This document shows positions 7,223 to 64,000 of a stretch of 64,000 nucleotides of DNA, in pieces. The notes under the pieces were generated by a model, which was not told the origin of the DNA, did not search any database, and was given only the letters and a program-made list of their open reading frames with translations. This stretch comes from an uncultured Clostridia bacterium (GTDB lineage: Bacteria > Bacillota > Clostridia > Christensenellales > UBA1242), in contig CANRQB010000003.1 in the NCBI GenBank assembly GCA_947632645.1, positions 10,482-74,481 on the forward strand, read 5' to 3'. The translations under genes and the position numbers were made by a program. The stretch's first letter is position 1; every line of letters begins with the position of its first letter.

Positions 7223-7645
7223 ATGGCAAAAAAGAAAAAGGGCAAAACCCAAAACAAAAGCGTAAATAAACCAAAAGCTGTTGTAGCCGACGAGGTTAAA
7301 GTTAGCGCGCCAGAAGCTGAAGTTAAGGCAGAAGCTGTAGCCGAAGTTAATCAACCCGAAGTTAAGCCCGAAGTTAAAGAAACTAAATGCGAAAAAGCGG
7401 GCAAAAAAAGCAAGGTGGTAGAGGTTAAGGCAAAGGATGTTAAAAAGGAAAGTAAACCTAAAAAACCAAACAAACTTGCCAAAAACCTTAAAGACACTGG
7501 TGCCGAACTTAAAAAAGTTACCTGGCCAAAATTTAAAGATGTTGTAAAACAAACCGGTATAGTTCTTGTAGTGGTGTTGGTTTTTGCACTTGTTTTGTTT
7601 GGGCTAGATAGGTTGTGCTACTGGCTAACCAGCTTTTTGTATTAA
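7223..7645 (+). CDS. secE: Preprotein translocase subunit SecE with a ~95-aa Lys/Glu/Val-rich N-terminal extension
   Basis: The C-terminus ELKKVTWPKFKDVVKQTGIVLVVVLVFALVLFGLDRLCYWLTSFL is the SecE TM core. Its position between rpmG and nusG is the conserved synteny. Confidence 0.85.
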   Translation: MAKKKKGKTQNKSVNKPKAVVADEVKVSAPEAEVKAEAVAEVNQPEVKPEVKETKCEKAGKKSKVVEVKAKDVKKESKPKKPNKLAKNLKDTGAELKKVTWPKFKDVVKQTGIVLVVVLVFALVLFGLDRLCYWLTSFLY

Positions 7646-7658
7646 AGGAGAAATGTAA

Positions 7659-8210
7659 ATGTCAAATATAGATATAGATAAAGAACCTAAATGGTATGTG
7701 CTTCACGTGTACTCTGGATACGAAAACGTGGCAAAACAAAACCTAGAAAACACTATAGAAAAGTACGGCCTAGAGGATAGGATTTTTGAAATTATAATCC
7801 CTATGGAAGATGTGCTAGAGGAAAAGAAAGGCAAAAAAGTGCTTGTTCCGCGCAAAACCATGCCGGGCTATATGTTTGTTAGAATGAAGTACGGCGACGA
7901 TATCTGGCACGCAATAACCCGTACTATGTATATAACCGGCTTTGTTGGGCCAAAGGGGCGCCCAATCTGCATAACCGACGAGGAAGCGCGCCGCATGGGG
8001 GTAGATAAACCTCAGCACACCGAAGTTAAGGTGGAATTAGACGTTAAAGTTGGCGATATGATAGAAGTTATCGATGGCAGTTTATCTAGCTTTGTTGGTG
8101 TGGTTAAAGCAGTGGATGCCGTAAATCAAAAGGTTACAGCAACAATCGAGATGTTTGGGCGTGAAAGCGAAGTTGAACTTGGCTTTAATCAAATCCGCGT
8201 AAAAAATTAG
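7659..8210 (+). CDS. nusG: Transcription termination/antitermination factor NusG
   Basis: KWYVLHVYSGYENVAKQNLE matches the NGN domain. GDMIEVIDGSLSSFVGVVKAVD matches the C-terminal KOW domain. Confidence 0.9.
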   Translation: MSNIDIDKEPKWYVLHVYSGYENVAKQNLENTIEKYGLEDRIFEIIIPMEDVLEEKKGKKVLVPRKTMPGYMFVRMKYGDDIWHAITRTMYITGFVGPKGRPICITDEEARRMGVDKPQHTEVKVELDVKVGDMIEVIDGSLSSFVGVVKAVDAVNQKVTATIEMFGRESEVELGFNQIRVKN

Positions 8211-8219
8211 TTTTGGGTA

Positions 8220-8247
8220 TTGACATATAAAAAATCTGTGATATAAT
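8220..8247 (+). promoter_or_regulatory. sigma-A promoter TTGACA-16-TGaTATAAT
   Basis: TTGACA at 8220-8225 and TATAAT at 8242-8247, with TG at 8239-8240. Confidence 0.6.
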
Positions 8248-8267
8248 TTTGTTATATCGGAGGATAT

Positions 8268-8615
8268 ATGAAAACAACCAAATATCTAGAAGAAAGGTTT
8301 GGATATGAGCCATTTATAAATTTTGTTGAAAACTACGCACAAAATGTTTTAGGAGTTTTTAAAGTTGAATCGTACGAATACAACAAGGAAGATGATGTTG
8401 TAATAATAGAATTTTTGTGTCTAGATAACAAGGTTGTGCGTGGCGAGTTTTATCCATTCCGCGCAGATTTATATTTTGCTGACGGAAACAAACATATTAT
8501 ATCATTAACACAAGAGTGGCAAAAGGTTGTTATTAGCCACACAAAAAATAGGGATGCATATATTGTAGATTTATTGTATGAAATAACCAATAGCAAAAAC
8601 ACAGTAGGTCGTTAA
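8268..8615 (+). CDS. Hypothetical protein, paralog A
   Basis: SD GGAGGA before the ATG. Shares YxYNKxxDxxxxxFxxxDNxxxxGEFxP[FY] with the next ORF. Confidence 0.6.
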   Translation: MKTTKYLEERFGYEPFINFVENYAQNVLGVFKVESYEYNKEDDVVIIEFLCLDNKVVRGEFYPFRADLYFADGNKHIISLTQEWQKVVISHTKNRDAYIVDLLYEITNSKNTVGR

Positions 8616-8661
8616 TTTATGCCTAAGCCCAAACAAATTAACTATGCATCATGGAGGACTT

Positions 8662-9030
8662 ATGCATTACTATCTTAACAAAATTAAAACTAAACAATTG
8701 GTGCATTTTTTTAAACAAGAAATACCAAAAAAAGTTAAAAAAGCAGCATTGTATAGCTACAATAAAAAAACCGATACAATTTTAATGATTTTTGAATTGG
8801 ACGATAATAGTTTTGCAATTGGAGAATTTTCTCCTTACAGCGCAAAAATTTCCGCAGCAGAAAAATACGATGAGGAATTTCATATAAGCGTGCTATTAAG
8901 CAAGGCGACCGTTAAGTGGCAAGATTATTTGTTTGAAATTATCGACAATAAAGAGTGCTACAACTACGACTTGGGCAAATATTATAGAGATCATCCAGAC
9001 AATACAGAGTATAATCCATATAATTTGTAA
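8662..9030 (+). CDS. Hypothetical protein, paralog B
   Basis: The in-frame ATG at 8662 is preceded by GGAGGA (8653-8658), so it is preferred over the track start at 8644. AALYSYNKKTDTILMIFELDDNSFAIGEFSPY aligns with VESYEYNKEDDVVIIEFLCLDNKVVRGEFYPF in paralog A. Confidence 0.6.
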   Translation: MHYYLNKIKTKQLVHFFKQEIPKKVKKAALYSYNKKTDTILMIFELDDNSFAIGEFSPYSAKISAAEKYDEEFHISVLLSKATVKWQDYLFEIIDNKECYNYDLGKYYRDHPDNTEYNPYNL

Positions 9031-9036
9031 TTTTGT

Positions 9037-9065
9037 TTGACAAAAATTTTAGATTATTGTATAGT
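9037..9065 (+). promoter_or_regulatory. sigma-A promoter TTGACA-17-TATAGT
   Basis: TTGACA at 9037-9042 and TATAGT at 9060-9065. Confidence 0.55.
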
Positions 9066-9179
9066 TTAATTTGGAAACCAATCCGCCAAATAGAGAGGGG
9101 GTATGTTCGGCCTTAACGAACACGTGGGAGGGCAAGTCGAGCCCAATTAACCACGCCATAATAAATAAAAGGAGATTTT
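9066..9179 (+). promoter_or_regulatory. Candidate structured 5' leader of the rplK-rplA operon (possible L1-binding mimic)
   Basis: A GC-enriched ~110-nt leader in an AT-rich context. It has the hairpin GTTCG-gccttaa-CGAAC, and GUGGGAGGGC resembles the 23S L1-stalk GGUGGGAGGC element as I recall it. Confidence 0.3.
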
Positions 9180-9620
9180 ATGGCAGCTAAAAAAATTAAA
9201 GCGGTTGCAAATCTTCAAATTCAGGCAGGTAAAGCCACCCCAGCACCACCAGTTGGTAGTAAACTTGGGCCATTTGGCATAAACATTGCCGGGTTTGTTA
9301 AAGAGTTTAACGATAAAACCGCAAGCATGGCAGGGTATGTAATCCCTTGCGTAATCACAATCTACGAGGATAGAAGTTTCACTTTCATCCTTAAAAAACC
9401 ACCTGTTGCAGATTTAATTAAAAAAGAAGCAGGTATCGAAAAGGGTACGGATAAAAGCCGTAACAAAGTTGGTAAACTTACCAAAGAACAATGCAAAAAA
9501 ATTGCAGAACTTAAAATGCCAGACCTTAACACCACCGATTTAGAGTCAGCTATGAGTATGGTTGCAGGCACTGCAAGAAGTATGGGCGTTGTAGTGGAGG
9601 GCTATCATGACAAAAAGTAA
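9180..9620 (+). CDS. rplK: 50S ribosomal protein L11
   Basis: [44 protein letters not shown] is a canonical L11 N-terminus. Confidence 0.95.
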
Positions 9621-10299
9621 AAAATATCAAGAAGCTTTAGCCACCTTAGAAAAGGGTAAAGTTTACGAAGCCAAAGAAGCTATGGTAGCAGTTGTTGGCA
9701 CAAGCAAAGCAAAATTTGACGAAACTGTAGAACTTCACGTAAAACTTGGCGTTGATGGCCGTAATGCCGATCAACAAGTGCGTGGTGTTTGCGTGTTGCC
9801 AGAAGGTACTGGTAAAAATGTTCGCGTGTTGGTTATTGCCAAAGGCGACAAGGCAGAAGAAGCCAAAAAAGCAGGTGCAGACATAGTTGGTGACGATGAA
9901 ATTATTGCCAAAATTATGTCGGGCAGCTGGCTAGATTTTGATGTGTGCATCACCACTCCAGACATGATGGGTGCACTTGGCAGATGTGCGCGTATATTGG
10001 GGCCTAAGGGCTTAATGCCAAACCCAAAAAGCGGCACAGTAACTATGGATGTAACAAAAGCTATTAAAGATGTTAAAGCCGGCAAGGTAGAATATCGTCT
10101 AGATAAGCAAAATATCATCCACGTTCGCATAGGCAAGGTAAGTTTTGGTGCAGACAGATTGTATAACAACCTAACCGCTGTTATGGGCGCAATAATCAAA
10201 GCAAAACCAGCCGCAGCAAAGGGCACATATCTAAAATCTGTGTACGTTGCAACCACAATGGGCCCAAGCGTAAAAGTTAACTACACCGATGCAAAATAA
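9607..10299 (+). CDS. rplA: 50S ribosomal protein L1
   Basis: [24 protein letters not shown]...[13 protein letters not shown]...[25 protein letters not shown]. Overlaps the rplK 3' end by 14 nt. Confidence 0.95.
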
Positions 10300-36182: not shown

Positions 36183-36211
36183 TTGACTTATTTTGTATAT
36201 TTTTATATAAT
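36183..36211 (+). promoter_or_regulatory. sigma-A promoter TTGACT-17-TATAAT of the giant gene
   Basis: TTGACT at 36183-36188 and TATAAT at 36206-36211. Confidence 0.6.
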
Positions 36212-59397: not shown

Positions 59398-59685
59398 ACA
59401 ATAATTTTACCATATTTTACCAATTTTTGTATATTTTTGCACATATTTTGTTGTGTTTTTTAAAAATTTTAAAAACCAAAAAACACTGCTTTGTGGTATT
59501 TTTGTTAAATTTAATTAAGATTTTTTTATTTTTAGTTGATTTTTTAATTAATTTTTATTAAATTTATTAATTTTTTTATTAATTTTTTATGTTTTTTTGT
59601 ATTTTTTATTAATTTTTAACATTATTATTTTAAATTTTAAAAATTGCCGCATAAAAAAAATTTATTAAAAATTTTACAAAAAGTG

Positions 59686-59714
59686 TTGACATTTGTTAGC
59701 TTTTGTTATATAAT
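59686..59714 (+). promoter_or_regulatory. sigma-A promoter TTGACA-17-TATAAT
   Basis: TTGACA at 59686-59691 and TATAAT at 59709-59714. Confidence 0.65.
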
Positions 59715-59884
59715 TACACTAGTTTAATAAAATTTCTTGCTGCTAAGACCACAAGTGCAGTAGCGTAAAACCTTCGGGTTGCTTGTGTAGGAGAGAAAAT
59801 ATGTCGATTAAAGTCTCTTTTGTCACGGCAAAAGGGATTTTTATTATTCTATAAGATTTATCTTATTTAGCATAAAGGAGGATT
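59715..59884 (+). promoter_or_regulatory. Ribosomal protein L10 leader-like attenuator
   Basis: A structured ~170-nt leader before rplJ. CACAAG (59749-54) pairs with CTTGTG (59782-87) and encloses AACC-ttcg-GGTT. This is followed by the terminator hairpin CTCTTTTG-tcacgg-CAAAAGGG plus ATTTTT (about 59813-59845). Confidence 0.55.
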
Positions 59885-60373
59885 ATGTCAGCAAATTTAG
59901 AAGCAAAAAAAGTTGCGGTAGAAGAAATTAAAAAACTGCTAACCGACAGTAAATCTGTTGTGTTGGTAGACTATCGCGGCACCACGGTTGAACAAGACAC
60001 TGCACTTAGAAAAACTTTGCGTGAAAATAATGTAGTGTACAAAGTGCTTAAAAACAGCCTGTTCAAAAAAGCGTGCGAACAACTTAACATCTCTGGCCTA
60101 GATGACGCACTTAATGGTACAACCGCTTTTGCATTTGGTATGGAGGATGAAACCGCTGCTCCGCGTCTTATCAAAAAAGCCAGCAAGGATTACACCACTT
60201 TGGTTATTAAAGCCGGCGTGATGGCAAACAAAGCTTTGTCTACTAGCGAAGTGGAGGCTATGGCAGCAATCCCAGCAAAAGATCAACTTGTTGCTCAATT
60301 GTTGTATGTCCTCAATGCACCTGTGGCATCGCTTGCACGTGCATTTAAAGCCATTGCAGATAAGCAAGGCTAG
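59885..60373 (+). CDS. rplJ: 50S ribosomal protein L10
   Basis: MSANLEAKKVAVEEIKKLLTDSKSVVLVDYRGTTVEQDTALRKTLRENNVVYKVLKNSL. Confidence 0.93.
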   Translation: MSANLEAKKVAVEEIKKLLTDSKSVVLVDYRGTTVEQDTALRKTLRENNVVYKVLKNSLFKKACEQLNISGLDDALNGTTAFAFGMEDETAAPRLIKKASKDYTTLVIKAGVMANKALSTSEVEAMAAIPAKDQLVAQLLYVLNAPVASLARAFKAIADKQG

Positions 60374-60459
60374 TTAACCGCTTAAGGTTCGTTTGTTACG
60401 TAAAAACAAAATTAGGAGAGTATCTCCTGCAAATTAAAATTTATTAAAAGGAGTTTAAT

Positions 60460-60831
60460 ATGACTATCGAAGAAATTGTTAATGAAATCAAAACTAAAAC
60501 TGCCGTTGAATTAAACGAGTTAGTTAAAGCATTAGAACAAGAATTTGGCGTTAGTGCCGCTGCCGCTGTTGTTGCTGGCCCTGCTGCTGGTGCAGCTGAT
60601 GCCCCTGCAGCCGAAGAAAAAACTGAATTTACTGTTATGCTTAAAGAAGTTGGCGCAAACAAAATTGCTGTTATCAAAGCAGTACGTGAAGCAACTGGCT
60701 TGGGCTTAATGGAAGCTAAAGCTTTGGTTGAAGCCGCTCCAAAAGCAGTTAAAGAGAACATCCCTCAAGAAGAAGCTAAAAAGCTTGAAGAGGCTCTTAA
60801 AGCTGCTGGTGCTGTTGTTGAACTTAAATAA
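60460..60831 (+). CDS. rplL: 50S ribosomal protein L7/L12
   Basis: [35 protein letters not shown]...[24 protein letters not shown]. Confidence 0.95.
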
Positions 60832-60878: not shown

Positions 60879-61023
60879 TTATTGTGCAAATTAATAAATT
60901 ATAAAGTAAGTTGAAGGATTTATGTTTAACAGTTTGTTTTTTGGCAAATATTATAAAAATGGGCAAAATTGATACTAACTTTACAAAATTTTCAAAAATT
61001 TTACAAAAAACATTAAAATTTGT

Positions 61024-61053
61024 TTGACTTAGATACCCCATGGGGTGTACAAT
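61024..61053 (+). promoter_or_regulatory. Promoter TTGACT-18-TACAAT with an embedded palindromic operator
   Basis: TTGACT at 61024-61029 and TACAAT at 61048-61053. ACCCCATGGGGT at 61035-61046 fills the spacer. Confidence 0.55.
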
Positions 61054-61081: not shown

Positions 61082-61675
61082 ATGAAAGAAACCAAAAAAA
61101 CAGCAACCGCTAAAGTTGCAGCAAAACCAGCTGTTGCAAAAAAAGCCGCTCCAAAAGCAGCTAAGCCAGCAGCAAAACCAGCTGTAAAAGCAGCAAAACC
61201 AGCAGCAAAAGCTCCAGCTAAAAAAGTAGCCAAGGCTCCTGCAAAAGCTCCAGTTAAAGCACCTGCTAAAAAAGTAGCTAAGGCTCCAGCAAAAGCTCCT
61301 GCAAAAGCTCCAGCTAAAAAAGCAGTAAAAGCTGCTCCTGCAAAAAAAGTTGTTAAGGCAGAAGTTAAACCTGTTGCAACAACTGCTGCAAAACCCGCTC
61401 AAAAAAAAACGGTTGTAGGGCGTGCGGAAGAGGAAAAAAAGGCGCTTAAAATCCGCATTAACCGTGTAATTGGTCAACTTAATGGTATTTCCGCCATGGT
61501 GGACGAAGGCAGATCTAGCGAAGATATCCTTATCCAACTAGTTTCCAGTTACAAATCAGTAAAAAGTATTTCCAATTTGCTTGTAGAAACGCATTTGCGT
61601 ACCGCCATAAAAGAAAGTGCAAACAATCCAAAAGCGGTAGACAGCGCAATGGAAATATTAAAGCGCTATCAATAA
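61082..61675 (+). CDS. Fusion protein: histone-H1-like Ala/Lys/Pro-repeat N-terminus plus a CsoR/RcnR-family (DUF156) C-terminal domain lacking the Cys ligands
   Basis: About 110 aa of AKPAAKPAVKAAKPAAKAPAKKVAKAPAKAP repeats, then IRINRVIGQLNGISAMVDEGRSSEDILIQLVSSYKSVKSISNLLVETHLRTAI. This aligns with B. subtilis CsoR [33 protein letters not shown]...LLEHHAHHCV. Confidence 0.7.
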   Translation: MKETKKTATAKVAAKPAVAKKAAPKAAKPAAKPAVKAAKPAAKAPAKKVAKAPAKAPVKAPAKKVAKAPAKAPAKAPAKKAVKAAPAKKVVKAEVKPVATTAAKPAQKKTVVGRAEEEKKALKIRINRVIGQLNGISAMVDEGRSSEDILIQLVSSYKSVKSISNLLVETHLRTAIKESANNPKAVDSAMEILKRYQ

Positions 61676-61698
61676 AGTGGTTTTTAACCACTTTTTTT
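61674..61698. terminator. Bidirectional terminator overlapping both stop codons
   Basis: AAAGTGGTT (61674-82) pairs with AACCACTTT (61686-94) around a 3-nt loop, followed by a T-run. Confidence 0.65.
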
Positions 61699-62727
61699 GT
61701 TTAACAAATCCGCAATTAAACCCACAACTTTTTGCCGTCCGTTAATTTTTTGTAGATGGGGGTAGGAGGCATTGTAGTTTTTAATATCGCTATAAAAAGA
61801 TATAATTTCATCTTTTAGTTTTTCAGGCGTTAAATTCTGCTGATGAATAAGTTTTGCAACCTTTAAATCAGCATAATATTTAGCATTTAGCACTTGATCG
61901 CCACGCGAAGATGAGTTTTCTAGCGGGATTAAAAGCATAGGGATTTGCTTATAGAAGCATTCGCTGGATACCCCCGCCCCGCTTCTGCCCAACATAAAAT
62001 CTGCCACGTTGTAAAGTTTTGCCATGTCGTCATAAAAAGGCAATGCTATATAATTGGTGCGGGTAGGGGGTGGGGTATTGTTTTTGCCATAGATATGGAT
62101 TATATTAAATCGCGTTAACAAATCATCTATTATTGGAGTTACAAGTTCGTTTATGCTTTTTGCGCCAAGCGAGCCGCACAAAATTAGTAGTGTTGGTTTG
62201 TTTGTGTTTAATTTTATGTCGTTGGGTTTATCAAGTTTATCAAAGGATTTTGCAAAAATTGGGCCAGTATACACTATTTTTTTGTTTTTTTTCTCTAGAT
62301 TCTTAAAATTTACGCACATTTTTGTGCAAAGCTTTAAAATAATTTTGTTTGCCAACCCAAAACTATAATCGCTTTCGTGTGCCAGTATGGGTATGTGTAG
62401 CATGCGCGCAGCTATGCAAACGGGCAGCGAAACATATCCGCCCTTGCTAAAAACCAACGCAGGCGATATTTTTTTTAGCGCTGCTTTGGCGGCGAATATC
62501 GCTTTAATTAACACAAAAGGTATTTTTAAATTGCTAAATATTTTTCCGCGCACTAATTTAACGGCGGGGATGATGTGGTAGGGTATATCTTTTGGTATTT
62601 TTGTTTTTTCTATCCCGTCGCTGCCGATATAACAAAAATTATATTTGCCGCGCAGCTCTTCCATTAGATACAAATTTGGCATAACATGCCCAAGCGTGCC
62701 GCCGCCAGTGAAACATATGGTTTTCAT
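61684..62727 (-). CDS. murG: UDP-N-acetylglucosamine--N-acetylmuramyl-(pentapeptide) pyrophosphoryl-undecaprenol GlcNAc transferase
   Basis: MKTICFTGGGTLGHVMPNLYLMEEL (G-loop), ...LCGSLGAKSIN..., ...GRSGAGVSSE.... ATG 62727 is preferred, because the track extension to 62970 covers a repeat unit and has no homology. Confidence 0.8.
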   Translation of the reverse strand: MKTICFTGGGTLGHVMPNLYLMEELRGKYNFCYIGSDGIEKTKIPKDIPYHIIPAVKLVRGKIFSNLKIPFVLIKAIFAAKAALKKISPALVFSKGGYVSLPVCIAARMLHIPILAHESDYSFGLANKIILKLCTKMCVNFKNLEKKNKKIVYTGPIFAKSFDKLDKPNDIKLNTNKPTLLILCGSLGAKSINELVTPIIDDLLTRFNIIHIYGKNNTPPPTRTNYIALPFYDDMAKLYNVADFMLGRSGAGVSSECFYKQIPMLLIPLENSSSRGDQVLNAKYYADLKVAKLIHQQNLTPEKLKDEIISFYSDIKNYNASYPHLQKINGRQKVVGLIADLLNKKSG

Positions 62728-62844
62728 ACTTATATTGTATGTGAGAATTATTTTTTTATTTGTTTTATATTCTAAAAACCGCACGTCCGCTTTAAATCGC
62801 TGGCAATTTTGAGCATGAATAACCCTTGGTCTAGCACTGCGTTC

Positions 62845-63950
62845 ATTTTGTACAAAAATGCTTGCGTTTTTTACAAAATGAGTTAGCGGGTAGAGAATTG
62901 ACCAACTGAAATTTGCAAGAAGTAGAGGGAATGTATTAAAGAGCCCAATCAAAATAGCGGCGCGCAGCATATTTATAAAATAATTTTGTACAAAAGTTAA
63001 TCAAAAGCATGTGCTTATTATTTTTACTTTATTATTAATTCGCCGCTGTTATATTTTGTACAAAAATATTAGGTTATTTTACAAAAACAGAGCAATTTGA
63101 TGTGATCGATTTGCGCTACAAACCCATCTGTATATATTTATACAAGTTATTTAAGCGCTTCGCATCTTAGCATTTTGTACAAAATCACTTACATTTTTTA
63201 CAAAACCTGCAACTATTAATTATGTTTGGATTGGGTGTGGATCTGCCAACACGTGTTTTGCTATTAACTAGTGCTTATGGCTTAGCATGCGGCACCACTG
63301 CAAAAAATTTTGTAAATATATTTCCAAAGAACGAAATTTAATTATTATCTTGTGAGATTGGTAGAGTAAATTGTTTGTATATGTGTGCTTAAAGGTTTGA
63401 TTCATCTATGAGGGTACTACACACTGCTGGAGATGTTTGTATTGTGTGATTGGGCAGAAAGGTTCATATTTATCAAACAGCACATAGCTGGGGTGTTTTT
63501 GTATAAAAATACCTAATTATTTTTAACAAAAAGGTTACTTAACTTCTTTTCACAAATGGCATTTTGTACAAAAAACGCTGCATATTTTACAAAATTAAAA
63601 CGAGGGACAGGCCTTTTTGTCGTCCGGGCAGCACTACATTCTGTACAAAAATATTTAAATATTTTACAAAAGTAAGTAAACGCTAATTTTGTAATGAATT
63701 AAATTTAGCGCGAGTTAATTTTATCAATTTTTACTAACGATTTGGTACGAGTAAATTGTTCTAATAGTTGTTTGTGTAAAATTATTGCAATATTTTGTAC
63801 AAAAATAAGCCAATATTTTACAAAAACAGAGTAGGCCTAGAATTTGTATTAATTTTAACTAAAATTTTGTACGAGTTAAATGCCTTACTAGTTGTATATT
63901 TAGAACAAATGTTATATTTTGTACAAAAACTCCTATTTATTTTACAAAAA
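62845..63950 (+). repeat. Dispersed same-orientation array of a ~34-bp bipartite motif (ATTTTGTACAAAA-N9-10-TTTTACAAAA)
   Basis: Seven well-conserved units start at 62845, 63053, 63172, 63561, 63638, 63792 and 63916. In each, the two TACAAAA cores are exactly 21 bp apart. Decayed or partial copies lie at 62984, 63308 (inverted half) and 63497. The track shows no ORF of 60 aa or more after 62970. Confidence 0.85.
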
Positions 63951-64000
63951 TAAACAATTGCGCTTCGAGTTGCCACCTTGAACTCATGGCAGGAGATAAA

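Follow-up and report, generated by a model that had tools for sequence, protein, structure and literature searches.

A putative operator cluster in the chromosome of an uncultured Clostridia bacterium and a seemingly undescribed box pair at spo0A-family promoters of gut Clostridia

What a gene-free, repeat-rich kilobase might be doing in an ordinary chromosome is the question raised by the right-hand end of a 64,000-nucleotide stretch of DNA from an uncultured Clostridia bacterium (assembly GCA_947632645.1, contig CANRQB010000003.1, positions 10,482 to 74,481 of the forward strand; hereafter the window). Between murG and the end of the window a short bipartite motif is repeated in a single orientation, and this repeat array was analyzed together with its surroundings and with related loci from other genomes and metagenomes. 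The reading favoured here, to which we assign a probability of about 0.5, is that the array is a binding platform or sink for a sporulation-linked factor. It builds on observations of the anatomy of the array, of conservation confined to its boxes, of the clade specificity of the box pair, of its promoter register in relatives and of its link to Spo0A_C-domain genes; from these we infer protein binding, cooperativity and platform or sink function alike. The array is seemingly an operator cluster, and the box pair at spo0A-family promoters of gut Clostridia is seemingly undescribed; a literature search with the box sequence and spo0A returned nothing relevant and no description of the box.

Direct reading of the region 62728-64000 revealed seven intact units and one decayed unit on the plus strand between 62846 and 63949, with the pattern TTTTGTACAAAA-N11-TTTTACAAAA (Table 1). 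The basic element is a 12-bp near-palindrome, TTTT(G/T)TACAAAA, and each unit consists of two such boxes spaced 21 bp from centre to centre, the first of which, box A (TTTTGTACAAAA), is a perfect 12-bp palindrome. A preliminary description made from the sequence alone had reported paired TACAAAA cores in seven units, and all of these were recovered at the positions given in Table 1, with exact 21-bp phasing in 7/7 units and all on the plus strand; the lone palindrome, the inverted half-site and the decayed unit that it mentioned were likewise found in place. The gap of 9-10 nt that it gave within a unit required correction, the distance from TTTTGTACAAAA to TTTTACAAAA being 11 nt in every unit. 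With the decayed unit included, successive units are 208, 119, 324, 65, 77, 154 and 124 bp apart, and unit 6 together with an extra half-box on its left forms a symmetric three-box site. Eight matches to the bipartite pattern were counted where 0.43 were expected, a number reached in none of 100 shuffles, and the 12-mer with at most one mismatch was matched 12 times against an expectation of 1.9. Boxes are concentrated to the extent that 17 of the 26 present in the 64-kb window sit inside 1.2 kb, the other 62.7 kb containing nine weaker matches. The array region is AT-rich (33% G+C). An ENA contig assembled independently (L038) agrees with its sequence at every one of 3,573 bases, and in four runs of a rabbit gut metagenome the Logan contigs covered it without differences; this agreement of independent assemblies indicates that the array is not an assembly artefact. 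The claim that the region is free of open reading frames (ORFs) held up, with none of 60 aa or more after 62970 and a longest of 52 aa. The 428-aa ORF extending to 62970 represents murG with an upstream extension; the true start lies at 62727, as judged from a Pfam match that opens at residue 4 and from the length of homologues (342-350 aa).

Alignment of the seven units in register showed that 25 of 26 positions (A-TTTTGTACAAAA and T.TTTTACAAAA) are invariant and that the remaining one is shared by 6/7, the central (G/T)TAC of the boxes being invariant in the array. No consensus across the seven units was seen in the 11-nt internal spacer or in either flank. Units 6 and 7 each lie in one copy of a 124-bp tandem duplication, and both boxes are 100% identical between the copies while the flanks and internal spacer are roughly two-thirds identical in an alignment judged by eye; in addition, units 2 and 6 have an identical 10 nt after box B (AAAAACAGAG). 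The common orientation of the units is therefore attributed to growth of the array at least partly by tandem duplication, and the retention of boxes while spacer and flanks diverge points to selection on the two boxes only, which is the signature of a protein-binding site. The boxes thus appear to be under selection. The 124-bp duplication, the 10 nt shared by units 2 and 6, the decay of one unit and the lack of an array in the nearest relatives (see below) would each suit a neutral relic, that is, a duplicated promoter-operator now without function whose boxes resemble one another since the copies are young or have been homogenised. However, the copies are not young, the spacer and flanks being near-random yet 25/26 box positions invariant in seven units, and gene conversion confined to two blocks of 10-13 bp is implausible; we consider a neutral relic unlikely.

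Box pairs elsewhere were sought in two scans. That of species representatives (185,579 genomes, one per species) used an N9-10 pattern, so that 19-20-bp periods were sampled, and yielded 37 loci, most of them in rabbit 'Lapin' Clostridia metagenome-assembled genomes (MAGs) or in 'uncultured Christensenella'/Eubacteriales MAGs, whilst a metagenome scan with the correct N11 spacing yielded 15 loci. The box pair is clade-specific, being a feature of rabbit 'Lapin' Clostridia and Christensenella-like MAGs. The number of boxes reached at most five in any other bacterial locus fetched, as against 17 in the array. Two complete bipartite units were read in one bacterial locus besides the window, L028 (7779-7889) of a mouse-gut Eubacteriales MAG; there they lie downstream of der-plsY in inverted orientation, separated by about 80 bp, and the locus stops short of the next gene. 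Scattered single matches in unrelated taxa (L007, L008, L010, L011, L014, L032, L035, L037 and L054) look like chance and were set aside. Locus L051, in which 12 boxes occur as the 12-mer in a 20/40-bp tandem satellite (830-1140) on a contig with eukaryote-like low-complexity ORFs, was rejected as unrelated to the bacterial element and stands as a caution for motif-only searches.

In the relatives 3-5 nt separate the end of the proximal box from the -35 element of canonical sigma-A promoters, which places box centres near -46 and -67 and sometimes near -25 (individual loci in Table 1). Where an imperfect box is reversed with respect to the gene (L053, L004, and L019/L025 against L013) the register is unchanged, and this reversible orientation of near-palindromic boxes argues for a dimeric binder and not for a promoter. 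The six loci with the -35 between the boxes have promoters that precede a leaderless 146-aa gene of unknown family. A conserved family of 146-149-aa proteins, '...VCVAKLC...YNYKN.FF...', without a Pfam match, was observed at L016, L021, L022, L023, L027, L030, L031 and L033; most of these loci have a consensus promoter with the box pair straddling the -35, and the -10 lies 6-8 nt before the ATG in most, implying a leaderless mRNA. Another regulator-like gene under boxes was found at L012, L026 and L029, where the box pair lies 15 nt upstream of the own TTGAC-type promoter of a gene for a 178-183-aa protein with a weak match to sigma-70 region 4 / DUF1492 (phage ArpU-like).

The motif is not ubiquitous at ordinary promoters within the window, a possibility that the preliminary description had raised against its own proposal. 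A single box-B-like half-box at the rplJ promoter, with 3 nt between it and the -35, keeps the register of the relatives. The promoter of a csoR-like gene, TTGACT-N18-TACAAT, is preceded at 15 nt by two box-B-like elements with a spacing of 20 bp, one helical turn further out than in the usual register. No array unit has a -35 at 3-5 nt after either box, nor a -10 in the register of the relatives, on either strand; the units appear to be orphan operators.

It might be argued that the units are themselves promoters, recognized by an alternative sigma factor or very weakly by sigma-A (TGTACA-N17-TACAAA), and that they fire rightwards in tandem to produce small RNAs or to serve the G+C-rich frame that opens at 63987. 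All units point in that direction, the distance between their two conserved blocks resembles that of a promoter, 37 nt separate the last unit from the ATG of the frame, and relatives do use leaderless mRNAs, for example at L021 and L033 (TATAAT, 7 nt, ATG). The second block nevertheless lacks the -7 T. Sigma-70-like sites in the region (at least 9/12 hexamer matches, with A2 and T6 of the -10) numbered 13 against 10.6 expected, which is not beyond chance, and with box B taken as the -35 only 2/7 units gave a marginal 9/12 match, so that the units do not score as sigma-70 promoters, in line with the weak sigma-A match already conceded in the preliminary description. Nor were the expected products found: in the array there were no credible small ORFs with a ribosome-binding site or leaderless start, no credible Rfam match at gathering or permissive thresholds and no terminator-like sites called on the plus strand, and a transfer RNA (tRNA) scan of the window found none. 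Folding z-scores of the inter-unit segments, on both strands, were mostly above -1.7 with one of -2.6 and gave no consistent signal relative to shuffles. In relatives the pair occurs in both orientations and always beside a separate canonical -35/-10, and the shared orientation in the array is accounted for by tandem duplication. Tandem promoters are accordingly judged quite unlikely.

The genes next to the box pair in relatives point to sporulation. Boxes adjoin Spo0A_C-domain genes in 11 motif-found loci. Full-length spo0A stands beside them at L044, L046, L052, L053 and L056, the assignment resting for L052 on Pfam (Spo0A_C 1.8e-37 plus a receiver domain) and for the other four on the canonical Spo0A C-terminal sequence in translations and on alignment; L004 and L009 encode Spo0A-like proteins in which Pfam found Spo0A_C only and the receiver domain was not detected; and L003, L013, L019 and L025 encode 120-aa Spo0A_C-only proteins, called by Pfam at L013 and L019 and by alignment at L003 and L025. 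ORFs of about 110 aa adjoining the boxes (L001, L005, L018 and L034) and the 146-aa leaderless family were not counted as Spo0A_C because they have no Pfam match. The association with spo0A, a single-copy gene, is far beyond chance. The link was also tested in reverse. A search with the L019 protein returned a small family of 12 clusters, and two loci fetched via the protein alone, L060 and L061, both have two boxes with a 21-bp period; both had been outside the search pattern because L060 has two T-type boxes and L061 two perfect palindromes. L060 comes from the rabbit MAG GCA_947630745.1, a relative with 70% MurG identity, indicating that the family to which the window belongs encodes a Spo0A_C-only paralogue. 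This paralogue aligns over the whole Spo0A DNA-binding domain (1LQ1, 1FC3) and retains the YP...ER.IR segment, which is invariant across all these proteins. The Spo0A_C Pfam domain has been reported to be enriched in mobile elements of gut Firmicutes (PMC6907783). The gene that takes the place of spo0A in Clostridia MAGs from rabbit and buffalo, at L004 (1608-2342) and at L009 (a 251-aa ORF directly following spoIVB), encodes a good Spo0A_C domain but no detected receiver, which suggests that the sporulation master regulator of this clade may not be phosphorylated.

This association also bears on the idea that the box is a generic structure, an UP-element-like or bent A/T-tract DNA in which T4-N4-A4 would serve for docking of the RNA polymerase alpha C-terminal domain or as a structural element. 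The Escherichia coli UP-element consensus is reportedly TTTT-N3-AAA at about -41 to -52, a position at which the box is also found, and the half-box 3 nt before the strong rplJ promoter could be understood in the same way. Against this, the invariant central (G/T)TAC would not be required by the alpha C-terminal domain, no core promoter accompanies the array units, and a strong and specific association with the spo0A family is unexpected for a generic UP element, making this explanation very unlikely.

Spo0A itself contacts G2, C4 and G5 of the 0A box TGTCGAA, and mutation of C4 or G5 lowers affinity about ten-fold (PMC3485338). The core of the present box, TGTACAA or TTTACAA, departs from that 0A-box core, and TGTCGAA/TTCGACA was not found in the array on direct reading. 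At L044, L046, L052, L053 and L056 canonical 0A boxes (TGTCGAA/TTCGACA) stand beside the boxes, and their presence in these spo0A regions implies a second factor. Since C4 and G5 are replaced in the box and 0A boxes co-occur with it, binding by canonical Spo0A is unlikely. The resemblance to 0A boxes is close in other respects: both are short A/T-flanked boxes that occur in multiples just upstream of or overlapping the -35, both are found at spo0A promoters near the sigma-A -35 (the present box at L004, L009, L044, L046, L052, L053 and L056), the candidate binder shares the DNA-binding fold, and TTTGTACAAAA matches a TGTCGAA core with A/T flanks except for the two bases in its centre. The arrangement differs in that 0A boxes are adjacent and in tandem, whereas the array boxes have a 21-bp period, a perfectly palindromic box A and a T(G/T)TACAA core. 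The most economical candidate for the factor, put forward tentatively, would be the Spo0A_C-only paralogue, or the receiver-less Spo0A-like protein of L004/L009, acting on its own promoter and on spo0A.

Other known systems share parts of this geometry. LytTR-type sites (AgrA, ComE, PlnC/D, VirR) are 9-bp direct repeats with a 12-bp spacer, and T(G/T)TACAAAA (9 bp) plus 12 bp gives the 21-bp period of 7/7 units; the proximal box also lies 3-5 nt before the -35 in L013, L019, L025, L053, L060 and L061, as in LytTR sites. The (A/C)(A/C)GTT-type LytTR repeat is, however, unrelated to the box, which is near-palindromic and reversible in orientation (L053, L004), and no LytTR domain was found among the window proteins scanned. 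Bacillus phage phi105 has six direct 14-bp repressor operators over several hundred bp, and a T-GT/AC-A palindrome signature is typical of winged-helix dimers, with AraR/GntR-type palindromes of the form TTGTAC...GTACAA. Repeated operators in one orientation across hundreds of bp are thus a likeness to these systems and serve as a lead only; the array differs in having no phage context and in a sequence that matches none of them exactly. A GntR- or Xre-like dimer on the TTGTACAA palindrome is presumably a further possibility. To our knowledge CodY, WalR, PhoP, DnaA, Bacteroidetes-type promoters, TcdR-family promoters and RTP/Ter sites are unfit in sequence or spacing. Clusters of DnaA boxes such as datA resemble the array, if it is a sink, in forming an intergenic cluster of about 1 kb with many high-quality sites away from promoters; the boxes and protein are different, the array has no DnaA boxes, and titration would be an inferred function here. 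RemA was set aside, with 7-bp repeats of 10-bp period that are poorly conserved (PMC8481266), as was CsiA, for which no DNA motif is described (bioRxiv 10.1101/2020.02.25.964569).

The preliminary description had proposed a DNA-binding-protein array that might be iteron-like, centromere-like or a landing pad for a regulator. A same-face two-site array, with sites two turns apart, is the best-supported part of that proposal, and of the functions named the regulator landing pad fits best, only the boxes being conserved and the pair being promoter-proximal in relatives. Iterons, a centromere and an oriC found no support. One-orientation direct repeats in AT-rich, ORF-free DNA might be expected of a plasmid or prophage element for replication or partition, and the surroundings do not bear this out: the window is plain chromosomal DNA of a spore-forming Clostridia bacterium with about 38% G+C, containing secE-nusG-rplK-rplA, dnaB/dnaI-type replication genes, cysS, gatCAB, aspS and spoIIID, and no rep, par (parA/parB, parM/parR or tubZ/tubR), integrase, recombinase or phage genes were present among the about 39 window proteins scanned. 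The DnaA box TTATCCACA with at most one mismatch had no match in 62728-64000, plasmid and phage BLAST searches found no similarity and a motif scan of viral contigs gave 0 hits. Cumulative GC skew climbs steadily across the window with no switch. The repeats are also dispersed at irregular spacings of 65-324 bp, and the boxes are promoter elements elsewhere, so that a replication or partition element is highly improbable. A perfectly palindromic box A and direct sites 65-324 bp apart would also be compatible with sites for a site-specific recombinase, in which short inverted arms would flank a TA or GTAC core and cassette-like segments would lie between the sites; the segments have no ORFs, no recombinase gene lies in the window neighbourhood and no joints or deletions between units were seen in the four runs, and this explanation is considered extremely improbable.

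The mechanism envisaged for a binding platform or sink is as follows. One sequence-specific DNA-binding protein would occupy the boxes, and the same-face 21-bp pair would allow two protein units to bind cooperatively. Related gut Clostridia have a single pair directly upstream of sigma-A promoters, especially those of spo0A and of 120-aa Spo0A_C-only genes. In this genome the unit has been multiplied, at least partly by tandem duplication, to seven-eight units plus loose boxes that fill the gene-free 1.1 kb between murG and the G+C-rich frame. The array would then most likely form a high-capacity platform, which might either extend the control of its neighbours (the frame at 63987, and murG, 119 bp from unit 1) or be a sink that buffers the level of free factor, as datA does for DnaA. 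A more specific proposal, which we regard as unlikely, is that a receiver-less Spo0A_C-only paralogue, binding DNA constitutively and occupying the spo0A promoter as well, has in the array a dedicated sink or landing pad on the chromosome. In that case the threshold for its arrival at spo0A and at its own gene would depend on how many orphan boxes there are, which would make the array a decoy-site timer for sporulation entry; alternatively, the array would anchor the chromosome during sporulation.

Several points weigh against the favoured reading. Judged by MurG, the closest relatives available are a Logan contig (76% identity) and GCA_947630745.1, and the array is absent upstream of murG in both, where the upstream region measures about 100 and about 200 bp, respectively, with different bordering genes; the preliminary description had itself named absence from close relatives as evidence against its proposal, and in these two, the nearest available, the array is indeed missing from that position. 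There was no second array among the genome, metagenome and other loci fetched, and the N9-10 pattern of the genome scan may have missed close relatives with true 21-bp units. Loci found by an exact pattern have identical boxes by construction, the half-box at the rplJ promoter also fits an UP-element-like reading, and canonical Spo0A, as set out above, is an unlikely binder.

Table 1. Coordinates of the array and neighbouring features in the window, and layout of box-associated promoters in related loci (L numbers)
Feature	Position	Strand	Remarks
murG (347 aa)	61684-62727	-	divergent from array; upstream region takes in unit 1
Unit 1	62846-62878	+	box A TTTTGTACAAAA, 11-nt spacer, box B TTTTACAAAA; cores 62851/62872; 119 bp upstream of divergent murG start
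Lone perfect palindromic box TTTTGTACAAAA	62984-62995	.	without partner box at 21 bp
Unit 2	63054-63086	+	cores 63059/63080
Unit 3	63173-63205	+	cores 63178/63199
Isolated half-box, opposite orientation	63298-63309	-	plus strand reads TTTTGTAAAT
Decayed unit	63497-63531	+	TTTTGTATAAAA, 11-nt spacer, TTTTTAACAAAA
Unit 4	63562-63594	+	cores 63567/63588
Unit 5	63639-63671	+	box A with one change (TTCTGTACAAAA); cores 63644/63665
124-bp tandem duplication	63729-63976	+	two copies (63729-63852, 63853-63976), one unit per copy (units 6, 7)
Extra half-box TTGTGTAAAA	63772-63781	-	11 nt left of unit 6 palindrome
Unit 6	63793-63825	+	cores 63798/63819
Unit 7	63917-63949	+	cores 63922/63943; last one ahead of window end
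Start of G+C-rich open frame	63987-64000	+	37 nt after unit 7; MAGDKVKTVSVRAGHA... once extended with L038 (33 extra nt)
rplJ promoter	59671-59723	+	TTTTACAAAAA, 3 nt, TTGACA-N17-TATAAT
csoR-like gene promoter	60979-61053	+	two box-B-like elements (60979-60988, 60999-61008)
L013			box, 3 nt, TTGACA
L019 and L025			box, 4 nt, TTGACT-N17-TAATTT or TAAATT
L003			box, 4 nt, TTAACA
L053			box, 5 nt, TTTACA-N17-TATAAT
L060			two boxes, 4 nt, TTGACA-N17-TATTTT
L061			two palindromes, 3 nt, TTGACT-N17-TATTTT
L016, L021, L022, L027, L030 and L033			-35 (TTGACT) between boxes; palindrome fills spacer before -10, centre about -25
L044 and L046			three boxes, about -26, -47 and -68

The genes nearest the array are rplJ-rplL, the csoR-like gene and murG, with dnaB/dnaI, gatCAB and spoIIID further off. 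On the far side, searches with the 16-aa start of the frame at 63987 gave no identity, and when extension of the contig was attempted all ENA and Logan contigs were found to end 31-125 nt beyond 64000. The csoR-like gene (61082-61675, plus strand; promoter 61024-61053) encodes a CsoR-family metal-sensing repressor domain at residues 118-195, preceded by a 115-aa Lys/Ala/Pro-rich, histone-H1-like N-terminal tail with AKPAAK repeats, and its promoter has a G+C-rich palindrome, ATACCCCATGGGGTGTA, between the -35 and -10 as expected for autoregulation; a similar AKKA-rich protein adjoins the box pair in the relative L017.

Some further features of the window and of the loci fetched were recorded. 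The usually contiguous secE-nusG-rplK-rplA-rplJ-rplL genes are split (7223-10299 and 59885-60831), with about 50 kb separating rplA from rplJ-rplL further downstream; nusG is followed by two inserted unknown genes (8268-9030), and rpoB does not directly follow rplL. A single ORF of 7,037 aa occupies 36248-57361 on the plus strand, with a canonical TTGACT...TATAAT promoter upstream at about 36183-36211 and no Pfam match in its first 2,000 aa. A 2.5-kb Logan contig of higher depth, present in all four runs, touches the window only via two 20-nt T-rich stretches (62275-62294 and 62746-62765), and its reported 'joint' looks like a spurious low-complexity match from another organism. At L034 (5170-5545) and L018 (510-850), two to three copies of a G+C-rich repeat, GGGGTCCCCACAAGAAC...CGCAGTGGGG...AAGGAGC, lie between the box pair and a tRNA-Leu(AAG) gene with promoter-like TTGACA...TATAAT sites nearby; this repeat may be an unannotated structured RNA.

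Were the boxes a generic UP-like promoter element, their interest would be local only. If confirmed, pairs of TTTT(G/T)TACAAAA in 21-bp phase, at about -46 and -67, would constitute a conserved, apparently undescribed cis-element of the promoters of spo0A and a small Spo0A_C-only gene family in uncultured gut Clostridia, and the array, with 17 boxes in 1.2 kb, would be a natural large cluster of orphan operators kept by selection, through which titration of a regulator or formation of a platform would be testable outside the DnaA/datA paradigm. It would also mean that there is an extra layer of control on entry into sporulation, the process that governs transmission of many gut anaerobes.

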